Notes: a model not told the origin generated them from the sequence alone. A DNA stretch of 64,000 bases from Escherichia coli (GCF_016903815.1 NZ_CP069973.1), one strand, 5' to 3'; positions 42,275 to 50,661 are shown, numbered from the stretch's first letter. Program-made: numbers and translations.

Positions 42275-43399
42275 TTAAATTTGCTTTTCATACAATCGGT
42301 AACGCTTGTACGGCTCCGCCCCAATGCGTTCCAGCATGTTATTCATGCCTGTATTGGTTTCGAGGATCCATGACATCTCCAGCGCATCGATCTTCCGGCG
42401 GGCAAACGGATCGCGTAAGGCTTCAATCAATAACAGCGCAATCACCGGGCCGATGCGGCTGAACTGATACTCGTCGCGCACGCCCATCAGCGGTACTCGC
42501 GCAGTTCGCACACCGCTGACTTTCAAACGCCACAGCAATTTTGCCCAGCCGAAGGGAAAGAGCGATCCGTTCAGATCGGCAATCGCCTCGTTGATGTTCG
42601 GCAAGCCGACAATAAACGCGCAGGGTGCAGAATCAATCTCAGCGATATAGATCATATCGTCCGGCACCAGATATTTAAGTTGATCGCCCATGGTCGCGAA
42701 TTCATGTTCGGTAAACGGCACAAATCCCCAGTTGTGCTGCCAGCCAGAGTTGAAAATCTCACGCAGGATCTGCATCTCTTCGGCAAACCGCTGACGATTG
42801 ATGCAGCGAATGGTCACCTTTTTGCGCACCTGATCCATCAGTTTTTTTAGCGCCGGAGAGAAAGTGAGATCGGTTCGCTGCATCCACCACGCCAGTAAAT
42901 CAATGCCTTTGTGATAACCCAGTTGTTCAATATGCGCGGCATACCACGGTTTGCCGTGTGGCATCATCGCACAGGGTGGTGTGTCAAAACCTTCAATCAG
43001 TAATCCGCTTTCCTGATTGATATTCAGGCTGAAAGGACCGCTGATCTTACTTGCACCTTGTGACTTCAACCACGCTTCCGCTGCGCCAAACAACGCGGCA
43101 AAAACCTGCGGATCATCAATGGCGTCAATCATGCCGAAATGACCGGTATCTTTGCCGTAACGCTCGCGGTGCAAGGTATCTATTTGCGCGGTAATACGCC
43201 CAACTATCTGCCCCGCTTTTTTTGCCACCCACGCCTGCCAGATGATATGGTCCGTCCCCGGATTTTTCGCAGACAAATGCTCGTTGCGTTCAATGAATAA
43301 AGGGGGTATCCAGTTTGGATCGTCGGGATAAAGTGATGACGGAAAAGCGATAAATGCCTTAAGGTCATTTTTATTAATTACTTTTTCAATTTTAATCAT
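42275..43399 (-). CDS. yghO: YghO family protein; candidate N-acyltransferase partner of the adjacent lipid operon
   Basis: ORF open from 43495, with more plausible starts at internal Mets (MIKIEKVINKND..., at about 43399); divergent from the acyl-AMP ligase operon. Acyltransferase assignment is an inference, not a motif call. Confidence 0.6.
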   Translation of the reverse strand: MIKIEKVINKNDLKAFIAFPSSLYPDDPNWIPPLFIERNEHLSAKNPGTDHIIWQAWVAKKAGQIVGRITAQIDTLHRERYGKDTGHFGMIDAIDDPQVFAALFGAAEAWLKSQGASKISGPFSLNINQESGLLIEGFDTPPCAMMPHGKPWYAAHIEQLGYHKGIDLLAWWMQRTDLTFSPALKKLMDQVRKKVTIRCINRQRFAEEMQILREIFNSGWQHNWGFVPFTEHEFATMGDQLKYLVPDDMIYIAEIDSAPCAFIVGLPNINEAIADLNGSLFPFGWAKLLWRLKVSGVRTARVPLMGVRDEYQFSRIGPVIALLLIEALRDPFARRKIDALEMSWILETNTGMNNMLERIGAEPYKRYRLYEKQI

Positions 43400-43784
43400 C
43401 AGCAGATCGCATTCCATAGTTCTGTTCTGTGGGTAACAAATAATTAACGGTGACAAACAGGTTGCAACAGCAACGAACGGCACCTTAATAATCAACCCAA
43501 TGAATACAAACGACGAATAAATAGTATTTATTAATGATTACGATAAGGTCAGAGACTACACAGAAGCGCCACAATGCCTTTTGTCGATTTAAGGCGACCG
43601 GACAAGGCTTCTTCTTAATATATTCATAAATTAAATATCATTCACAATAAAAACAAAAAAACTCAAACTCATTATTTAAATCAATGTTCATTTTCACACT
43701 GATGAAAATACTATCTCATTTATCTTTTATGCCTATATAATCCACCGCATTATTGTCATTTTATTTTGGATATCCAATTTTTTC

Positions 43785-45515
43785 GTGGTGTATATGTCTA
43801 ATAAAATCTTTACGCATTCCCTACCTATGCGCTATGCCGATTTTCCAACGCTTGTTGATGCTTTGGACTACGCCGCTCTGAGTAGCGCCGGAATGAATTT
43901 TTATGACAGACGTTGCCAACTTGAAGATCAACTGGAATATCAGACGTTAAAAGCACGTGCCGAAGCTGGTGCGAAGCGGTTGTTATCGCTGAACCTGAAA
44001 AAAGGCGATCGCGTGGCACTGATTGCCGAAACAAGTAGCGAGTTCGTAGAGGCTTTTTTTGCCTGCCAGTATGCCGGCTTAGTCGCCGTCCCGTTGGCGA
44101 TTCCAATGGGCGTTGGTCAGCGGGATTCCTGGAGCGCCAAATTGCAGGGTTTACTGGCAAGTTGCCAGCCCGCAGCCATTATCACTGGTGATGAGTGGTT
44201 GCCACTGGTCAATGCCGCGACGCATGACAACCCCGAATTACATGTTTTAAGCCACGCCTGGTTTAAGGCATTACCGGAAGCCGATGTTGCGCTCCAGCGT
44301 CCAGTTCCGAACGATATCGCCTACCTCCAGTACACCTCCGGCAGCACCCGTTTTCCCCGTGGCGTCATTATCACCCATCGCGAAGTGATGGCTAATCTAC
44401 GTGCTATAAGCCACGACGGCATTAAATTACGCCCTGGCGACCGCTGCGTCTCCTGGCTGCCTTTCTACCATGATATGGGACTGGTCGGCTTTCTCCTGAC
44501 CCCCGTCGCCACGCAGCTTTCAGTAGATTATTTGCGCACTCAGGATTTTGCCATGCGTCCTCTGCAATGGCTTAAATTGATCAGTAAAAATCGCGGCACC
44601 GTTTCCGTTGCGCCGCCGTTTGGCTATGAATTGTGCCAGCGCCGCGTGAATGAAAAAGATCTCGCTGAACTGGATCTTTCCTGCTGGCGCGTCGCTGGTA
44701 TTGGTGCAGAACCCATCTCCGCAGAACAACTCCATCAATTCGCTGAATGTTTCCGTCAGGTTAACTTTGACAATAAAACTTTCATGCCGTGCTACGGACT
44801 GGCAGAAAATGCGCTGGCTGTCAGCTTCTCTGATGAAGCCTCCGGGGTTGTGGTTAACGAAGTGGATCGCGACATCCTCGAATATCAGGGTAAAGCCGTC
44901 GCGCCGGGTGCAGAGACACGCGCCGTATCGACTTTCGTCAACTGCGGCAAAGCGTTGCCGGAACATGGTATTGAAATCCGCAATGAAGCAGGTATGCCGG
45001 TCGCGGAACGTGTGGTAGGCCATATTTGCATCTCCGGTCCCAGTCTGATGAGCGGTTACTTTGGCGACCAGGTTTCGCAAGACGAGATTGCCGCGACGGG
45101 CTGGTTAGACACCGGCGACCTCGGTTATCTGCTGGACGGTTATCTGTATGTCACCGGACGCATTAAAGATCTGATTATTATTCGTGGCCGTAATATCTGG
45201 CCGCAGGATATTGAATATATAGCGGAACAGGAACCGGAAATTCATTCTGGCGATGCGATTGCTTTTGTTACCGCCCAGGAAAAAATCATTTTGCAGATCC
45301 AGTGTCGGATCAGCGACGAAGAACGTCGCGGGCAGCTTATCCACGCGCTGGCGGCACGGATCCAAAGCGAATTTGGCGTGACCGCGGCTATCGATCTGTT
45401 GCCGCCCCACAGTATTCCCCGAACGTCCTCCGGCAAGCCTGCCCGTGCGGAAGCGAAAAAACGTTATCAGAAGGCTTATGCTGCCAGTCTTAATGTGCAG
45501 GAATCCCTGGCATGA
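43785..45515 (+). CDS. Fatty acyl-AMP ligase / acyl-ACP synthetase-like adenylating enzyme
   Basis: 576 aa ORF; AMP-binding motif YTSGSTRFPRGVIITH, later TGDLG and GRIKDLIIIRGRN motifs; 4-bp overlap with the next gene. Confidence 0.85.
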   Translation: MVYMSNKIFTHSLPMRYADFPTLVDALDYAALSSAGMNFYDRRCQLEDQLEYQTLKARAEAGAKRLLSLNLKKGDRVALIAETSSEFVEAFFACQYAGLVAVPLAIPMGVGQRDSWSAKLQGLLASCQPAAIITGDEWLPLVNAATHDNPELHVLSHAWFKALPEADVALQRPVPNDIAYLQYTSGSTRFPRGVIITHREVMANLRAISHDGIKLRPGDRCVSWLPFYHDMGLVGFLLTPVATQLSVDYLRTQDFAMRPLQWLKLISKNRGTVSVAPPFGYELCQRRVNEKDLAELDLSCWRVAGIGAEPISAEQLHQFAECFRQVNFDNKTFMPCYGLAENALAVSFSDEASGVVVNEVDRDILEYQGKAVAPGAETRAVSTFVNCGKALPEHGIEIRNEAGMPVAERVVGHICISGPSLMSGYFGDQVSQDEIAATGWLDTGDLGYLLDGYLYVTGRIKDLIIIRGRNIWPQDIEYIAEQEPEIHSGDAIAFVTAQEKIILQIQCRISDEERRGQLIHALAARIQSEFGVTAAIDLLPPHSIPRTSSGKPARAEAKKRYQKAYAASLNVQESLA

Positions 45516-46426
45516 ATCAAACTGTCGCGGTGACGGGCGCTACCGGGTTTATCGGTAAATATATTATCGATAACCTGCTCGCCCGCGGCTTTCACGTTCG
45601 CGCATTGACGCGTACTGCCCGCGCTCACGTCAATGATAATCTCACCTGGGTGCGCGGTTCGCTGGAAGATACTCATTCACTTAGCGAGCTGGTTGCCGGA
45701 GCCAGCGTAGTGGTCCATTGCGCCGGGCAAGTGCGCGGGCACAAAGAAGAGATTTTCACCCGCTGTAACGTTGACGGCAGCCTGCGCCTGATGCAAGCAG
45801 CAAAAGAGAGCGGCTTTTGCCAACGTTTTCTGTTTATCTCTTCGCTGGCGGCGCGCCATCCCGAGCTCTCCTGGTATGCAAAATCCAAATACGTCGCCGA
45901 GCAACGACTGGCAGCAATGGCGGACGAAATTACGCTGGGCGTTTTTCGCCCGACAGCCGTGTATGGTCCCGGCGATAAAGAGTTAAAACCGCTGTTTGAC
46001 TGGATGCTGCGCGGCCTGCTGCCACGACTTGGTGCGCCAGATACACAGCTCTCTTTTCTGCACGTCACCGATTTCGCGCAAGCAGTGGGTCAGTGGTTAA
46101 GCGCCGAAACTATACAGACGCAAACCTATGAATTATGCGATGGCGTCGTCGGCGGCTATGACTGGCAACGCGTACAGCAACTTGCCGCCGACGCCCGTTG
46201 CGGTTCCGTGCGAATGGTTGGCATTCCTCTGCCGGTACTCACCGGCCTTGCGGATATCAGTACCGCGTTGAGTCGCCTGGCAGGTAAAGAACCTATGCTG
46301 ACCCGCTCGAAAATTCGTGAATTAACCCACGCCGACTGGTCGGCAAGTAATAACCGTATTTCTGAAGATATTAATTGGTTTCCCGGGATTAGCCTGGAAC
46401 ACGCATTACGCAACGGGCTATTTTGA
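45512..46426 (+). CDS. NAD(P)-dependent epimerase/dehydratase-family reductase (candidate ketosphinganine/ceramide reductase)
   Basis: 304 aa ORF; N-terminal Rossmann motif VTGATGFIGKY; operon position between the adenylating enzyme and the ACP. Confidence 0.8.
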   Translation: MNQTVAVTGATGFIGKYIIDNLLARGFHVRALTRTARAHVNDNLTWVRGSLEDTHSLSELVAGASVVVHCAGQVRGHKEEIFTRCNVDGSLRLMQAAKESGFCQRFLFISSLAARHPELSWYAKSKYVAEQRLAAMADEITLGVFRPTAVYGPGDKELKPLFDWMLRGLLPRLGAPDTQLSFLHVTDFAQAVGQWLSAETIQTQTYELCDGVVGGYDWQRVQQLAADARCGSVRMVGIPLPVLTGLADISTALSRLAGKEPMLTRSKIRELTHADWSASNNRISEDINWFPGISLEHALRNGLF

Positions 46427-46457
46427 TTGTCTTGTTTAAAGGTGTGTTAACGTTTCT

Positions 46458-46706
46458 ATGGTAAATCGTGAAATAGTAATGGATTACATCCTTTCCTGTT
46501 TACAGGATTTGGTCGAAAACGGTGTGGAAATTAAGCCCGACAGCGATCTCGTCAACGATCTTGGCCTGGAGTCGATCAAAGTGATGGATCTCTTAATGAT
46601 GCTGGAAGACAGATTCGATATTTCCATTCCTATTAATATTCTGCTGGATGTCAAAACCCCTGCGCAATTAATGGAAACTCTACTTCCATGGCTGGAGAAT
46701 AAATAA
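46458..46706 (+). CDS. Dedicated acyl carrier protein
   Basis: About 75-82 aa; phosphopantetheine attachment motif DLGLESI; acidic; stop overlaps the start of the following synthase gene. Confidence 0.8.
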   Translation: MVNREIVMDYILSCLQDLVENGVEIKPDSDLVNDLGLESIKVMDLLMMLEDRFDISIPINILLDVKTPAQLMETLLPWLENK

Positions 46707-47878
46707 TGGGGCTATACGATAAATATGCGCGCCTTGCTGGCGAGCGACTGCAATTTAGTGACAACGGGTTAACACCGTTTGGCACCTGTATTGATGAAGT
46801 GTATTCCGCCACCGAAGGCCGGATCGGCAATAAAAAAGTGATTCTGGCCGGGACCAATAATTATCTCGGTTTAACCTTTAATCATGATGCCATCAGCGAA
46901 GGTCAGGCCGCGTTAGCGGCCCAAGGTACCGGCACCACCGGTTCTCGTATGGCAAACGGCAGTTATGCGCCGCACCTGGCGTTAGAGAAAGAGATTGCCG
47001 AGTTTTTCAATCGCCCTACCGCTATCGTTTTTTCAACCGGTTATACCGCTAATTTAGGCGTCATCAGCGCACTTGCCGACCATAACGCCGTGGTGTTACT
47101 GGATGCCGACAGCCACGCCAGTATTTATGACGCCTGTTCTCTCGGTGGCGCGGAAATTATTCGTTTCCGCCATAACGATGCTAAAGATCTGGAACGGCGC
47201 ATGGTTCGCCTCGGTGAACGGGCGAAAGAGGCGATTATCATCGTTGAGGGTATCTACAGCATGCTCGGTGACGTTGCGCCGTTAGCGGAAATTGTTGATA
47301 TCAAACGTCGTCTCGGTGGTTATTTGATTGTCGATGAAGCGCATTCGTTTGGCGTGTTAGGCGCAACGGGGCGCGGACTGGCTGAAGCTGTCGGCGTTGA
47401 AGATGATGTGGATATTATCGTTGGCACCTTCAGTAAAAGTCTGGCCTCGATTGGCGGTTTTGCTGTCGGTTCGGAAGCGATGGAAGTGCTGCGCTACGGC
47501 AGCCGCCCGTATATTTTTACCGCCTCTCCTTCTCCGTCCTGCATTGCGACCGTGCGCTCGTCGTTAAGAACTATTGCCACACAACCAGAGCTGCGGCAAA
47601 AGCTGATGGATAATGCCAACCATCTGTATGACGGTCTGCAAAAACTGGGTTATGAGTTAAGTTCACATATTAGCCCGGTAGTGCCGGTAATAATCGGTTC
47701 GAAAGAGGACGGTTTACGCATCTGGCGCGAGCTTATTTCGCTGGGCGTTTATGTGAATCTTATCCTGCCACCTGCCGCGCCTGCAGGCATCACGCTGCTG
47801 CGCTGTAGCGTAAACGCTGCTCACAGTCGTGAGCAAATCGATGCCATCATTCAGGCATTTGCTACTCTGAAGCAGTAA
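46706..47878 (+). CDS. Alpha-oxoamine synthase, serine palmitoyltransferase-like (PLP-dependent)
   Basis: 390 aa ORF; PLP-lysine region GTFSKSLASIGGF typical of the AOS family (Spt/KBL/BioF/CqsA); paired with an ACP and an acyl-AMP ligase. Confidence 0.85.
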   Translation: MGLYDKYARLAGERLQFSDNGLTPFGTCIDEVYSATEGRIGNKKVILAGTNNYLGLTFNHDAISEGQAALAAQGTGTTGSRMANGSYAPHLALEKEIAEFFNRPTAIVFSTGYTANLGVISALADHNAVVLLDADSHASIYDACSLGGAEIIRFRHNDAKDLERRMVRLGERAKEAIIIVEGIYSMLGDVAPLAEIVDIKRRLGGYLIVDEAHSFGVLGATGRGLAEAVGVEDDVDIIVGTFSKSLASIGGFAVGSEAMEVLRYGSRPYIFTASPSPSCIATVRSSLRTIATQPELRQKLMDNANHLYDGLQKLGYELSSHISPVVPVIIGSKEDGLRIWRELISLGVYVNLILPPAAPAGITLLRCSVNAAHSREQIDAIIQAFATLKQ

Positions 47879-47883
47879 TGTGA

Positions 47884-47916
47884 GCCCGCCGTGGTGTTGC
47901 GCCACGGCGGGTTTAA
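47884..47916 (+). terminator. Rho-independent terminator-like hairpin between convergent genes
   Basis: Perfect 10-bp GC-rich stem CCCGCCGTGG/CCACGGCGGG followed by TTTAATGTT, just after the Spt-like stop and overlapping the stop of the convergent permease gene. Confidence 0.6.
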
Positions 47917-48992
47917 TGTTGTCTGTCATACCAATACACCAGGCTCAACGCCACCAGCACAAACGCTATCGGTAAACCGAGCGCGGTAACAGGTGCGCTC
48001 AACGCAAATAGCAATCCCAGATTGACCATGATTTGATAGCTGATCCAGGTGAGTAAGCCAACGATGACACCTACAGCGAGACGGCTACCCATCCCTGGCG
48101 AGCGCGGGGCGCTAAAGGTAAACGGCACAGCCAGCAAAATCATCGCCAGGGTCAGGATGGGTTGCCCCAGTTTTTCCCACAGTGCAAGGCGGTATTCGCT
48201 GCTGGGTTGCCCGGTTTCCTGCAAATAATGGATGTAATGATTAAGCTGACGGACAGAAAAAGTATTGCCCGGCATTGATAACTCTTCAAGATCCATACTG
48301 GTGAAGGCCGATTGCCAGGCAAGATTATCTAATGTTTCCAGCGTTTCTTTGCCATTCAGCCATTTTTTATGATTCACACCATGCAGGATCCACGTTTTGT
48401 CGTCTTCAATGGTGGCACTGCGTGCATAAATGTAGGATTCGAGCGAGAGATCGTCGCGATAATGAAAAATCTCCACGCCCACCGGCTGGCCCTGCTCGTT
48501 CAGCGATTTCACCGTCACAAATTCATTACCACGCCTGGCCCACAGCATATTGCCGGTAATGTCATCGTCCTCCCCCAACGCGGTGGCGGTCGATTTGATT
48601 TGCAACGCCTGTTGCTGTAATGGCGACGCTACCCACTCATCTATCGCGCCTAACGAAACAGTCCACAATATCCCTGTAACCAGCGCCACCAGTGCAATAC
48701 GGAAGATAGAAAACCCCATGCTGCGAATGGCGGTAAGCTCACTGTTTTTCGATAACTGCCCCAGGCCGACAATCCCTCCCAATAAGGCGATAAATGGCGA
48801 AAGTTCGACCAGTGTGCGCGGTAAGGTCATTAGCACCACCAGCACCGCCTGAGTCCAGCGATAACCGCCCGGGCTGACATCATCCAGTTCGTTAATCAGG
48901 TTGAAGGTGGTAAAAAGCGGCAGCAATAGCCCTGCGGCGGCGGCAAAACCGAGAAAGAGATGACGGATTAAATAGCGGCTGAAAACATTCAT
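47913..48992 (-). CDS. LptG-like (YjgP/YjgQ family) permease, paralog
   Basis: About 359 aa from MNVFSRYLIRHLFLGF; polytopic membrane protein with a large periplasmic loop; ATGA overlap with the upstream paralog; the ORF track start at 49073 is likely an extension. Confidence 0.75.
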   Translation of the reverse strand: MNVFSRYLIRHLFLGFAAAAGLLLPLFTTFNLINELDDVSPGGYRWTQAVLVVLMTLPRTLVELSPFIALLGGIVGLGQLSKNSELTAIRSMGFSIFRIALVALVTGILWTVSLGAIDEWVASPLQQQALQIKSTATALGEDDDITGNMLWARRGNEFVTVKSLNEQGQPVGVEIFHYRDDLSLESYIYARSATIEDDKTWILHGVNHKKWLNGKETLETLDNLAWQSAFTSMDLEELSMPGNTFSVRQLNHYIHYLQETGQPSSEYRLALWEKLGQPILTLAMILLAVPFTFSAPRSPGMGSRLAVGVIVGLLTWISYQIMVNLGLLFALSAPVTALGLPIAFVLVALSLVYWYDRQH

Positions 48993-50059
48993 CGGGAAAA
49001 TTTCTGCAGCAAAGAGAAGTCGCGTGCGACCAGCATCAGCAGGCCCATTAGCATGAGTCCGGGTACTAACCACAAACCAGGAATGAGGGGAATCGCGCCG
49101 TTAGCCACCAGCGTACGGCAGACGTCACCGCCATAAAAAATGGCAATAAACAGCAACGTCAGTGGCAATAACGTTGAAAATCGCCCTTGCCGCGGTTTTA
49201 CCCGACTTAATGAAATGGCCAGCAGCGCCATCAACAATGCGGTCAGGCCACGGCTTTGCCGCCATTGCAGTTCGGCATGATCGGCTGGAAAGACGGAGCG
49301 CGCCAGCTCCGTGACCGATTTCGCTTTGCGTTTGACGTTAGGGCTTTGATCCAGCGGATTCAGATGTAATTGCAGATTACGGTAGATCTGTTCGTTGTCA
49401 TCACGCCCCTGATGATCGATAAGATAGGCAGTGCCGTTGTGCAACATAACGGTCGGTTTCTCGGGTGATGGGTCAATCACATCAACCGAACGGGCGCGGA
49501 AAATGCGGGTTCGATTGGCAGTAGAAGTATAAATCAGCGCGTCAGTCAGGCGATTATTATCCTGATCAACCGTCTGCGAAAGGATCATTCGTCCGTTATC
49601 GTTAGTGTTAAATTTCTTTGCCCGCAACTGGCGAACATCCAGCTCCGACTGCGACTGCTGCTCCAGTTGATAAATCTGCGCATAAGCCCACGGACGACCA
49701 TACATCGACAGAAGGGTGACAAAAATACTTAGCGGTATCGCCAGATAAAGAACGGCTTTGTACAAGCGTCCCGGACTGCCCCCCGCCGCAGAGATAGCGG
49801 TAATTTCCGAGTCGGTATACATCTGCCCTAGCGTCACGCCAACTGACACATACAGACCAACAGGTAACAACATCTCCAGTGCAATCAGTACTTTGTAGAA
49901 AACGATATCCAGCACAACATCAAGAGCTAATGTCCCATTTGCCGCTTCGGTCAGATAACGCTGTGCGGAGTAGCTGGCGAAAATAAAGATCAGAAAACCG
50001 ACGATAATCAGCACCAGACGGCGCGTACCACGCATGATGTAGTGTTCAACCAGCTTCAT
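48989..50059 (-). CDS. LptF-like (YjgP/YjgQ family) permease, paralog
   Basis: 356 aa polytopic membrane protein with a periplasmic loop; paired with the LptG-like gene; no adjacent ABC ATPase. Confidence 0.75.
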   Translation of the reverse strand: MKLVEHYIMRGTRRLVLIIVGFLIFIFASYSAQRYLTEAANGTLALDVVLDIVFYKVLIALEMLLPVGLYVSVGVTLGQMYTDSEITAISAAGGSPGRLYKAVLYLAIPLSIFVTLLSMYGRPWAYAQIYQLEQQSQSELDVRQLRAKKFNTNDNGRMILSQTVDQDNNRLTDALIYTSTANRTRIFRARSVDVIDPSPEKPTVMLHNGTAYLIDHQGRDDNEQIYRNLQLHLNPLDQSPNVKRKAKSVTELARSVFPADHAELQWRQSRGLTALLMALLAISLSRVKPRQGRFSTLLPLTLLFIAIFYGGDVCRTLVANGAIPLIPGLWLVPGLMLMGLLMLVARDFSLLQKFSR

Positions 50060-50089: not shown

Positions 50090-50653
50090 TTATTCATTGA
50101 TCAGTTTCTGCGCCAACGCAATGACATGATCTACCTCTTCCGGCGTCAGGCTGCCGTCCTTTGCCCACTGAATTTGCCCGGCTTTATTCAGCACCAGAAT
50201 GGTTGAACTCTGCTCCGGCAAGCGCCAGGCAACGCGTCCCTGTCCATTGCCGTCAATAACGAATTGCGCCCACGGATAGCGGCGTTTATTTTTTTCGATT
50301 TTGCCAACAACAAAATAGCCAGTACCAAAGATGGCATCATCGGTGTTCACAATGGTGGTGGGCTGAAAACGATCCTGCGGAAAGTTTGCCGCTTCAACCG
50401 CTTTAATTAACAGTGAGTTCTTTTTCTTCGCCGACTTACGCCCGGCGATATACTGAATAATGCGGACTTTTCCCGCTAATTGTGTGCTGTTCCACTTTTG
50501 GTAGTGAATTTCGTCGTCGCTATTCAGAAGCAGCTCGCCGCCTTCCTGGATATAAACAGGGGTAACCGTTTTGCCAGTGACGAAATTGTGTGCCTGCACA
50601 CCCGGGGCTAAGAGCATGATAATCAACGCAATAATCAAACGAGATGACATCAT
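50090..50653 (-). CDS. YtfJ-family-like periplasmic protein
   Basis: 187 aa ORF with signal peptide (MMSSRLIIALIIMLLAPGVQA); family assignment from recollection of YtfJ-like proteins, not verified. Confidence 0.6.
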   Translation of the reverse strand: MMSSRLIIALIIMLLAPGVQAHNFVTGKTVTPVYIQEGGELLLNSDDEIHYQKWNSTQLAGKVRIIQYIAGRKSAKKKNSLLIKAVEAANFPQDRFQPTTIVNTDDAIFGTGYFVVGKIEKNKRRYPWAQFVIDGNGQGRVAWRLPEQSSTILVLNKAGQIQWAKDGSLTPEEVDHVIALAQKLINE

Positions 50654-50661
50654 TGCTCCGG

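Follow-up and report, generated by a model that had tools for sequence, protein, structure and literature searches.

Can Escherichia coli, whose textbook lipidome is free of sphingolipids, make ceramides? The question is raised by a locus in a stretch of 64,000 nucleotides of E. coli DNA (GCF_016903815.1, NZ_CP069973.1; hereafter the window), in which four plus-strand genes, aasR, cerR, acpR and spt, lie next to the divergent gene yghO. We conclude, with a probability of roughly 0.9, that these five genes encode a five-enzyme dihydroceramide pathway of the type found in Caulobacter. The operon itself is already known: it was published in 2022 and has been partly tested biochemically, spt carries that name in RefSeq, and the product of its first gene was crystallised in 2011. 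As a discovery the locus therefore offers little that is new, and a figure in a 2026 preprint already shows it with the neighboring lptF2 and lptG2 genes.

The four genes are tightly coupled, as the initial annotation had proposed. Their open reading frames (ORFs) are co-directional and occupy 43785-45515 (576 amino acids), 45512-46426 (304 amino acids), 46458-46706 (82 amino acids) and 46706-47878 (390 amino acids). The TGA stop of gene 1 overlaps the ATG of gene 2 in the sequence ATGA, a gap of 31 nt precedes acpR, and the acpR stop shares 1 nt with the spt start codon (TAATG). The motifs quoted for the four proteins are likewise all present: YTSGSTRFPRGVIITH at residue 183 of the long gene 1 ORF, VTGATGFIGKY at residue 7 of CerR, DLGLESI at residue 34 of AcpR and GTFSKSLASIGGF at residue 240 of Spt. 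The proposed operon span of 43785-47878 holds for the ORFs and the downstream end, but not for the start. Position 43785 is a GTG that opens the longest ORF, whereas RefSeq and the construct behind the crystal structure 3PBK begin at the ATG at 43827, giving a protein of 562 amino acids. The start is ambiguous, with no obvious Shine-Dalgarno sequence at either position; we give aasR here as 43827-45515.

Much of what can be said about function comes from E. coli BL21(DE3), whose locus, ECD_02850 to ECD_02854, is one and the same as that in the window save for a few allelic substitutions. Spt (ECD_02854), AcpR (ECD_02853) and YghO (ECD_02850) are each 100% identical in the two strains, AasR matches ECD_02851 at 559 of 562 residues and CerR matches ECD_02852 at 303 of 304, and the DNA of the whole island is 99.9% identical over 12,995 bp, the yghR gene of the window differing by a 2-bp frameshift. 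Experiments published on the BL21(DE3) proteins thus apply directly to the window. Padilla-Gómez et al. (2022, Front Microbiol 13:961041; PMC9386255) studied this locus and named its products AasR (ECD_02851), "epi" (ECD_02852), AcpR (ECD_02853) and SPT (serine palmitoyltransferase; ECD_02854), with yghO (ECD_02850) as the N-acyltransferase "aca". RefSeq labels the four operon genes in E. coli fatty acyl-AMP ligase, NAD-dependent epimerase/dehydratase family protein, acyl carrier protein, and "spt: serine palmitoyltransferase".

The same study showed that AcpR-Ec takes up beta-alanine in vivo, and so carries a 4´-phosphopantetheine group, and that co-expression of AasR-Ec, AcpR-Ec and SPT-Ec leads to 3-oxo-sphinganine (PMC9386255). 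AasR-Ec was functional with AcpR-Ec and not with the Caulobacter AcpR; acylation of AcpR-Ec by AasR-Ec was deduced from product formation in vivo. In extracts containing SPT-Ec, palmitoyl-AcpR supported the conversion of L-[14C]serine much better than palmitoyl-CoA did. The SPT-Ec product was identified by co-migration in thin-layer chromatography, high-resolution mass spectrometry having been applied to the Caulobacter protein set (PMC9386255). With identical or near-identical proteins tested in this way, a crystal structure of the gene 1 product, and an acyl transfer assay for that enzyme (PMC8460268), the initial annotation, which was aware of no functional characterization, has to be corrected on this point.

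Our assignment of gene 4, spt (46706-47878, +), rests on curated profile cutoffs and Protein Data Bank (PDB) bit scores, and both support a serine palmitoyltransferase, a pyridoxal 5´-phosphate (PLP)-dependent alpha-oxoamine synthase, of the rhodobacterial subgroup that depends on an acyl carrier protein (ACP). Spt scored 599.2 bits against the SPT equivalog model NF047599 of NCBIfam (cutoff 500), the sole alpha-oxoamine synthase model whose cutoff was passed; the NCBIfam CFB SPT model gave 340 against a cutoff of 640. Its best PDB matches are the enzymes of Sphingomonas paucimobilis and S. wittichii (2JG2, 2X8U; 372-375 bits), with 47% identity over the full length at 375 bits. In the alignment, the catalytic residues H159, D231, H234, K265 and R390 of the S. 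paucimobilis enzyme correspond to invariant H137, D210, H213, K244 and R366 of Spt, and the PLP lysine, Lys244, lies within the motif at residue 240. The gene setting agrees with this subgroup, with acpR ending at 46706, where spt starts, and aasR two genes upstream. In Sphingomonadaceae, unlike in E. coli, aasR is far from acpR-spt. SPT of Bacteroidota and deltaproteobacteria, represented by Sphingobacterium multivorum (3A2B, 8GUH; 264 bits), has the reaction and fold in common with Spt, but forms a separate subgroup with no dedicated ACP or fatty acyl-AMP ligase (FAAL) as partner (PMC9386255).

The first gene, aasR, encodes a FAAL that would load the dedicated ACP. AasR scored 878 bits against NCBIfam NF006624 (fatty acyl-AMP ligase; cutoff 600) and, when translation starts at the methionine at 43827, shares each of its 562 residues (100% identity) with EcFAAL in 3PBK (Zhang et al. 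2011, as cited in PMC8460268 and PMC11837247), leaving no difference at the protein level. The structural papers handled EcFAAL as a model FAAL and drew no link to sphingolipids (PMC8460268, PMC11837247). EcFAAL moves 14C-lauric acid onto holo E. coli ACP in vitro, and the paper calls this ACP cognate (PMC8460268); the "EcACP" used, UniProt A0A2X1NC35, may be the AcpR of the operon.

The carrier protein itself is encoded by acpR (46458-46706, +), with Ser39, within DLGLESI, as the predicted 4´-phosphopantetheine site. ACP profile hidden Markov models (HMMs) matched residues 22-60 of AcpR, all below their cutoffs (35.6 bits against 71), which marks it as a specialised carrier distinct from the housekeeping AcpP. 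CerR, encoded at 45512-46426 (+), has the hallmarks of an extended short-chain dehydrogenase/reductase, a TGxxGxxG motif at residues 8-15 and YAKSK at residues 122-126, matching YxxxK. CerR fell under the cutoff of every NCBIfam model, the best being HpnA with 95 bits against 368. We regard it as the probable orthologue of the Caulobacter ceramide reductase CC_1164 (CCNA_01222) and predict that it reduces a 3-keto group; that ECD_02852 may act as a reductase had already been suggested (PMC9386255).

The fifth gene, yghO (42275-43417, -), is divergent from the operon. By tblastn, YghO is 42-43% identical over 380 amino acids to Caulobacter sp. orthologues (E about 1e-97), and the published comparison with CC_1154 gives 44% identity with E 1e-107. 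YghO had no match in Pfam, NCBIfam or the PDB by sequence. The orthology makes it a homologue of the bacterial ceramide synthase bCerS (Caulobacter CC_1154, CCNA_01212), with a predicted activity of the same kind.

Comparison with Caulobacter bears out the idea of the initial annotation that the four genes form a ceramide/sphingolipid core like the one described there. To place the locus more widely, one genome per GTDB species was scanned with an alignment of Spt, giving 80 loci, and the island proteins were then searched against these by tblastn. Three long-flank Caulobacter/Caulobacterales loci show aasR, cerR, acpR and spt in the order and orientation of E. coli. All four genes match the syntenic Caulobacter sp. 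loci (L079 and L080), with identities of 43% for AasR, 33% for CerR (E 1e-31 to 1e-33), 41% for AcpR and 55% for Spt. They agree with the published comparison with the Caulobacter proteins, which gives 53% for Spt, 42% for AasR, 41% for AcpR, 34% for Epi (CC_1164, E 7e-38) and 44% for Aca. The same two loci have a YghQ-like flippase upstream (27% identity) and lptF2/G2-like genes downstream (23-25%).

The five dihydroceramide genes were described as clustered only in C. crescentus and E. coli BL21 (PMC9386255). In our survey, 51 of the 80 loci keep all four operon genes within 4 kb in the E. coli order and orientation; 56 have a yghO homologue adjacent to the operon, and 45 have lptF2/G2 homologues near spt. 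The loci include 18 species of Enterobacterales, among them members of Escherichia, Pseudocitrobacter, Hafnia, Serratia, Shimwellia, Tatumella, Mangrovibacter, Erwinia, Pluralibacter, Cedecea and Rosenbergiella, as well as Citrobacter youngae. More distant loci come from Nitrospira, Geobacteraceae, Methylotenera, Rhodocyclaceae, Luteibacter/Dyella and many gammaproteobacterial metagenome-assembled genomes. The conserved gene order spans Enterobacterales, Nitrospira and the beta-, gamma- and deltaproteobacteria.

The pathway would run as follows. AasR adenylates a free fatty acid and loads it onto the 4´-phosphopantetheine arm of AcpR, a step shown with proteins identical or nearly identical to those of the window. 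Spt, whose Lys244 holds the PLP, next condenses L-serine with acyl-AcpR to yield 3-oxo-sphinganine and CO2, a reaction demonstrated for the identical protein by overexpression and in extracts. By orthology to CC_1154 and CC_1164, YghO would add an N-acyl chain to the base and CerR would reduce its 3-keto group, or the two steps would occur in the reverse order, giving dihydroceramide; the order of N-acylation and 3-keto reduction is debated even for Caulobacter. Finally, LptF2, LptG2 and YghQ probably flip and export the lipid. The native product has been demonstrated for Caulobacter, whereas the E. coli pathway is known from its genes and from overexpressed proteins.

Several observations weigh against this reading, above all against its operation in wild cells. 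BL21(DE3) carrying empty vectors gave no 3-oxo-sphinganine in vivo or in extracts, despite its chromosomal operon (PMC9386255), which implies that the native operon was silent or weakly expressed under those conditions. Searches of the literature brought up no account of unmodified E. coli containing a sphingolipid. The intergenic region between yghO and aasR (43418-43826; 409 bp), presumed to hold the promoters of both yghO and the operon, is AT-rich, with a GC fraction of 0.32 against about 50% across the window, and a scan of it for the sigma-70 consensus gave plus-strand sites not above chance. The island has been lost or disrupted by insertion sequences (ISs) in at least three lineages. 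Regarding substrates, a review gives C12:0 and C14:0 as those of EcFAAL, so that the native long-chain base may be shorter than C18. In Spt, Leu354 (window about 47765-47767) replaces Arg378 of S. paucimobilis, as it does in all four enterobacterial Spt proteins that were aligned. Arg378 contacts the serine carboxylate in the S. paucimobilis enzyme.

The low GC content and the missing plus-strand sigma-70 consensus would fit xenogeneic silencing of the operon by H-NS, a plausible candidate mechanism. A stronger version of this concern is that the operon is intact but cryptic, with wild E. coli making no sphingolipid under natural conditions and the genes in the course of being lost. The empty-vector result, the silence of the literature, the IS-mediated losses and the frameshifted yghR of the window would all be expected if this were so. 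We nevertheless consider it unlikely, though it is the alternative that survives best, given that the proteins are active once expressed and given the pattern of retention and selection described below.

A search of 5426 complete E. coli genomes matched the operon in 4183 and left roughly 1,250 with no match. In 4067 of them at least 80% of the 4.1 kb is present, with identities of 95-100%; about 75% of complete genomes thus retain the operon. In K-12 MG1655 (3129043-3132408), IS5LO is flanked by yghO, truncated at its 5´ end, and by a truncated yghQ, and the genes from aasR through that for a 274-amino acid protein are gone. The absence of the whole block from laboratory K-12 thus goes back to a deletion associated with IS5, and 350 genomes, in essence the laboratory K-12 lineage, share the junction. 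A separate IS1-associated deletion, reaching from aasR to yghS, is present in strain CUPF09, and in strain 2018-11-1BCC an IS1 sits within the operon. Set against these losses, the ratio of nonsynonymous to synonymous substitution rates (dN/dS) lies between 0.03 and 0.15 in each of the eleven island genes compared with a divergent Escherichia locus (dS 0.13-0.67); only that comparison was used, since those with Hafnia, Shimwellia and Pluralibacter were often not computable owing to synonymous saturation. Such values indicate sustained purifying selection on the island genes, dispensable though they are in the laboratory, and a complete 13-gene set has been kept across many genera of Enterobacterales. 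About three quarters of complete E. coli genomes have an intact set of five ceramide-pathway genes that purifying selection maintains, together with a candidate dedicated Lpt-like exporter, all of which K-12 lost via IS5.

A second alternative, which we consider very improbable, concerns the chemistry of gene 4: the enzyme might use an amino acid other than serine, yielding a CqsA-type alpha-hydroxyketone, a cysteate-derived precursor of capnine or sulfonolipids, or an aminolipid derived from glycine or alanine. These enzymes all have the same fold and PLP-lysine motif, cysteate-C-fatty acyltransferase is the next PDB match that is not an SPT (205 bits), and the Leu354 substitution can be read in the same direction. 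The remaining evidence favors serine. Only the SPT model was passed, CqsA (NF005526) reaching 221.5 bits against a cutoff of 428 and 5-aminolevulinate synthase (ALAS) 219 against 339, and the SPT structures are far ahead of ALAS (about 171 bits) and CqsA (about 125 bits). Moreover, the identical protein turned L-[14C]serine into a 3-oxo-sphinganine-like product, and 56 of 80 loci place gene 4 in synteny with homologues of bCerS and CerR. The CqsA-like signal and the sulfonolipid precursor that the initial annotation had offered as alternative products are thus unsupported. A role for gene 4 in biotin or threonine metabolism, as a redundant paralog of BioF or Kbl, is effectively refuted: the superfamily is common to all and the PDB matches are significant (E about 1e-50 to 1e-59; Kbl about 204 bits, BioF about 175 bits), but Spt stays under the curated cutoffs of bioF (TIGR00858, 333 against 426) and Kbl (NF005394, 297 against 460; TIGR01822, 248 against 493), is translationally coupled to a dedicated ACP with a FAAL in the same operon, and gave 3-oxo-sphinganine in experiments. 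A synthase lying within the BioF or Kbl clade, which the initial annotation had named as grounds for refuting its reading, is not what these scores show. On HMM cutoffs and PDB scores taken together, CqsA, BioF, Kbl and ALAS were all rejected as identities for gene 4.

One record from a eukaryote proteome set touches on the acpR-spt junction. A eukprot protein of 443 amino acids is 99% identical to E. coli Spt and has an extra ACP domain (PF00550). It looks like E. coli contamination in which a gene caller merged the overlapping acpR and spt genes.

Beyond the five genes of the dihydroceramide pathway, the island holds a set of co-travelling genes. Convergent with spt are lptG2 (47913-48992, -; TIGR04408, 309 bits) and lptF2 (48989-50059, -; TIGR04407, 318 bits), second copies of lipopolysaccharide (LPS)-export permease genes. 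Their products are merely 28-29% identical to the canonical LptG and LptF of K-12. RefSeq labels the pair (47913-50059) as LPS export permeases despite this divergence. In Caulobacter, LptF2 and LptG2 are needed for sphingolipid transport and bind LptB, according to a preprint (10.64898/2026.04.12.717747) in which one figure sets the sphingolipid operons of E. coli UTI89, Caulobacter and S. wittichii side by side. By analogy, the E. coli pair is probably the sphingolipid counterpart of the Caulobacter transporter pair and a candidate exporter.

Further along lies an accessory block comprising genes for a YtfJ-family protein (50090-50650, -), a CHAD-like protein of 274 amino acids (50662-51486, -), the MOP-type flippase YghQ (51486-52835, -), YghR (52881-53641, -), YghS (53673-54386, -) and YghT (54560-55252, +). 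This block (50090-55252) is syntenic with spt in Enterobacterales, in Methylotenera/Rhodocyclaceae and in Luteibacter/Dyella, and this co-location suggests that its genes may belong to the pathway. The 274-amino acid protein had no match in Pfam or NCBIfam by sequence and was grouped with CHAD domains by fold comparison only. In yghR, a 2-bp CG insertion at 53340-53341 relative to BL21(DE3) splits the gene into two ORFs of 102 and 155 amino acids, reflecting either a frameshifted pseudogene in the source strain or a sequencing error. Literature searches on the function of yghO or yghQRST yielded nothing relevant.

The accessory genes are also where E. coli and C. crescentus part ways. The C. 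crescentus locus (CC_1152-CC_1168; ccna_01212-01226) resembles that of E. coli in the order and strand of aasR-cerR-acpR-spt and in having a bCerS homologue, an lptF2/G2 pair and a YghQ-like flippase nearby. However, it has cpgABC and lptC2, and the E. coli island has no cpgA, cpgB or cpgC homologue and no lptC2. The E. coli island has instead three thymidylate kinase-like P-loop paralogs, YghR, YghS and YghT, together with the CHAD-like and YtfJ-family proteins. YghR, YghS and YghT were considered as homologues of CpgB, the Caulobacter ceramide kinase, and rejected: CpgB belongs to the LCB5/DAG-kinase family with a GGDG motif, whereas the fold of YghS is that of thymidylate kinase.

It is possible, as a tentative extension of the dihydroceramide pathway, that wild E. 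coli and many other Enterobacterales make an outer-membrane sphingolipid that has gone undetected. Such a lipid could bear a head group different from that of the Caulobacter ceramide phosphoglycerate, built by YghR, YghS, YghT and the CHAD-like protein, and could be flipped by YghQ and exported by LptB-LptF2-LptG2. Were this the case, the sphingolipid-free lipidome of the textbooks would be partly artefactual, reflecting what K-12 lost through IS5 and the silence of these genes in laboratory culture.

No RNA family was matched when positions 42-56 kb were scanned with Rfam. Between the convergent spt and lptG2 genes, a GC-rich hairpin at 47881-47915 has a 16-bp stem with 10 GC pairs and abuts the lptG-like gene. 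Its predicted fold has a dG of -30.3 kcal/mol and a z of -7.0, a stability equalled by none of 200 shuffles, and its T-tract is weak. The position and fold suggest that the hairpin is likely a bidirectional terminator for the two genes.

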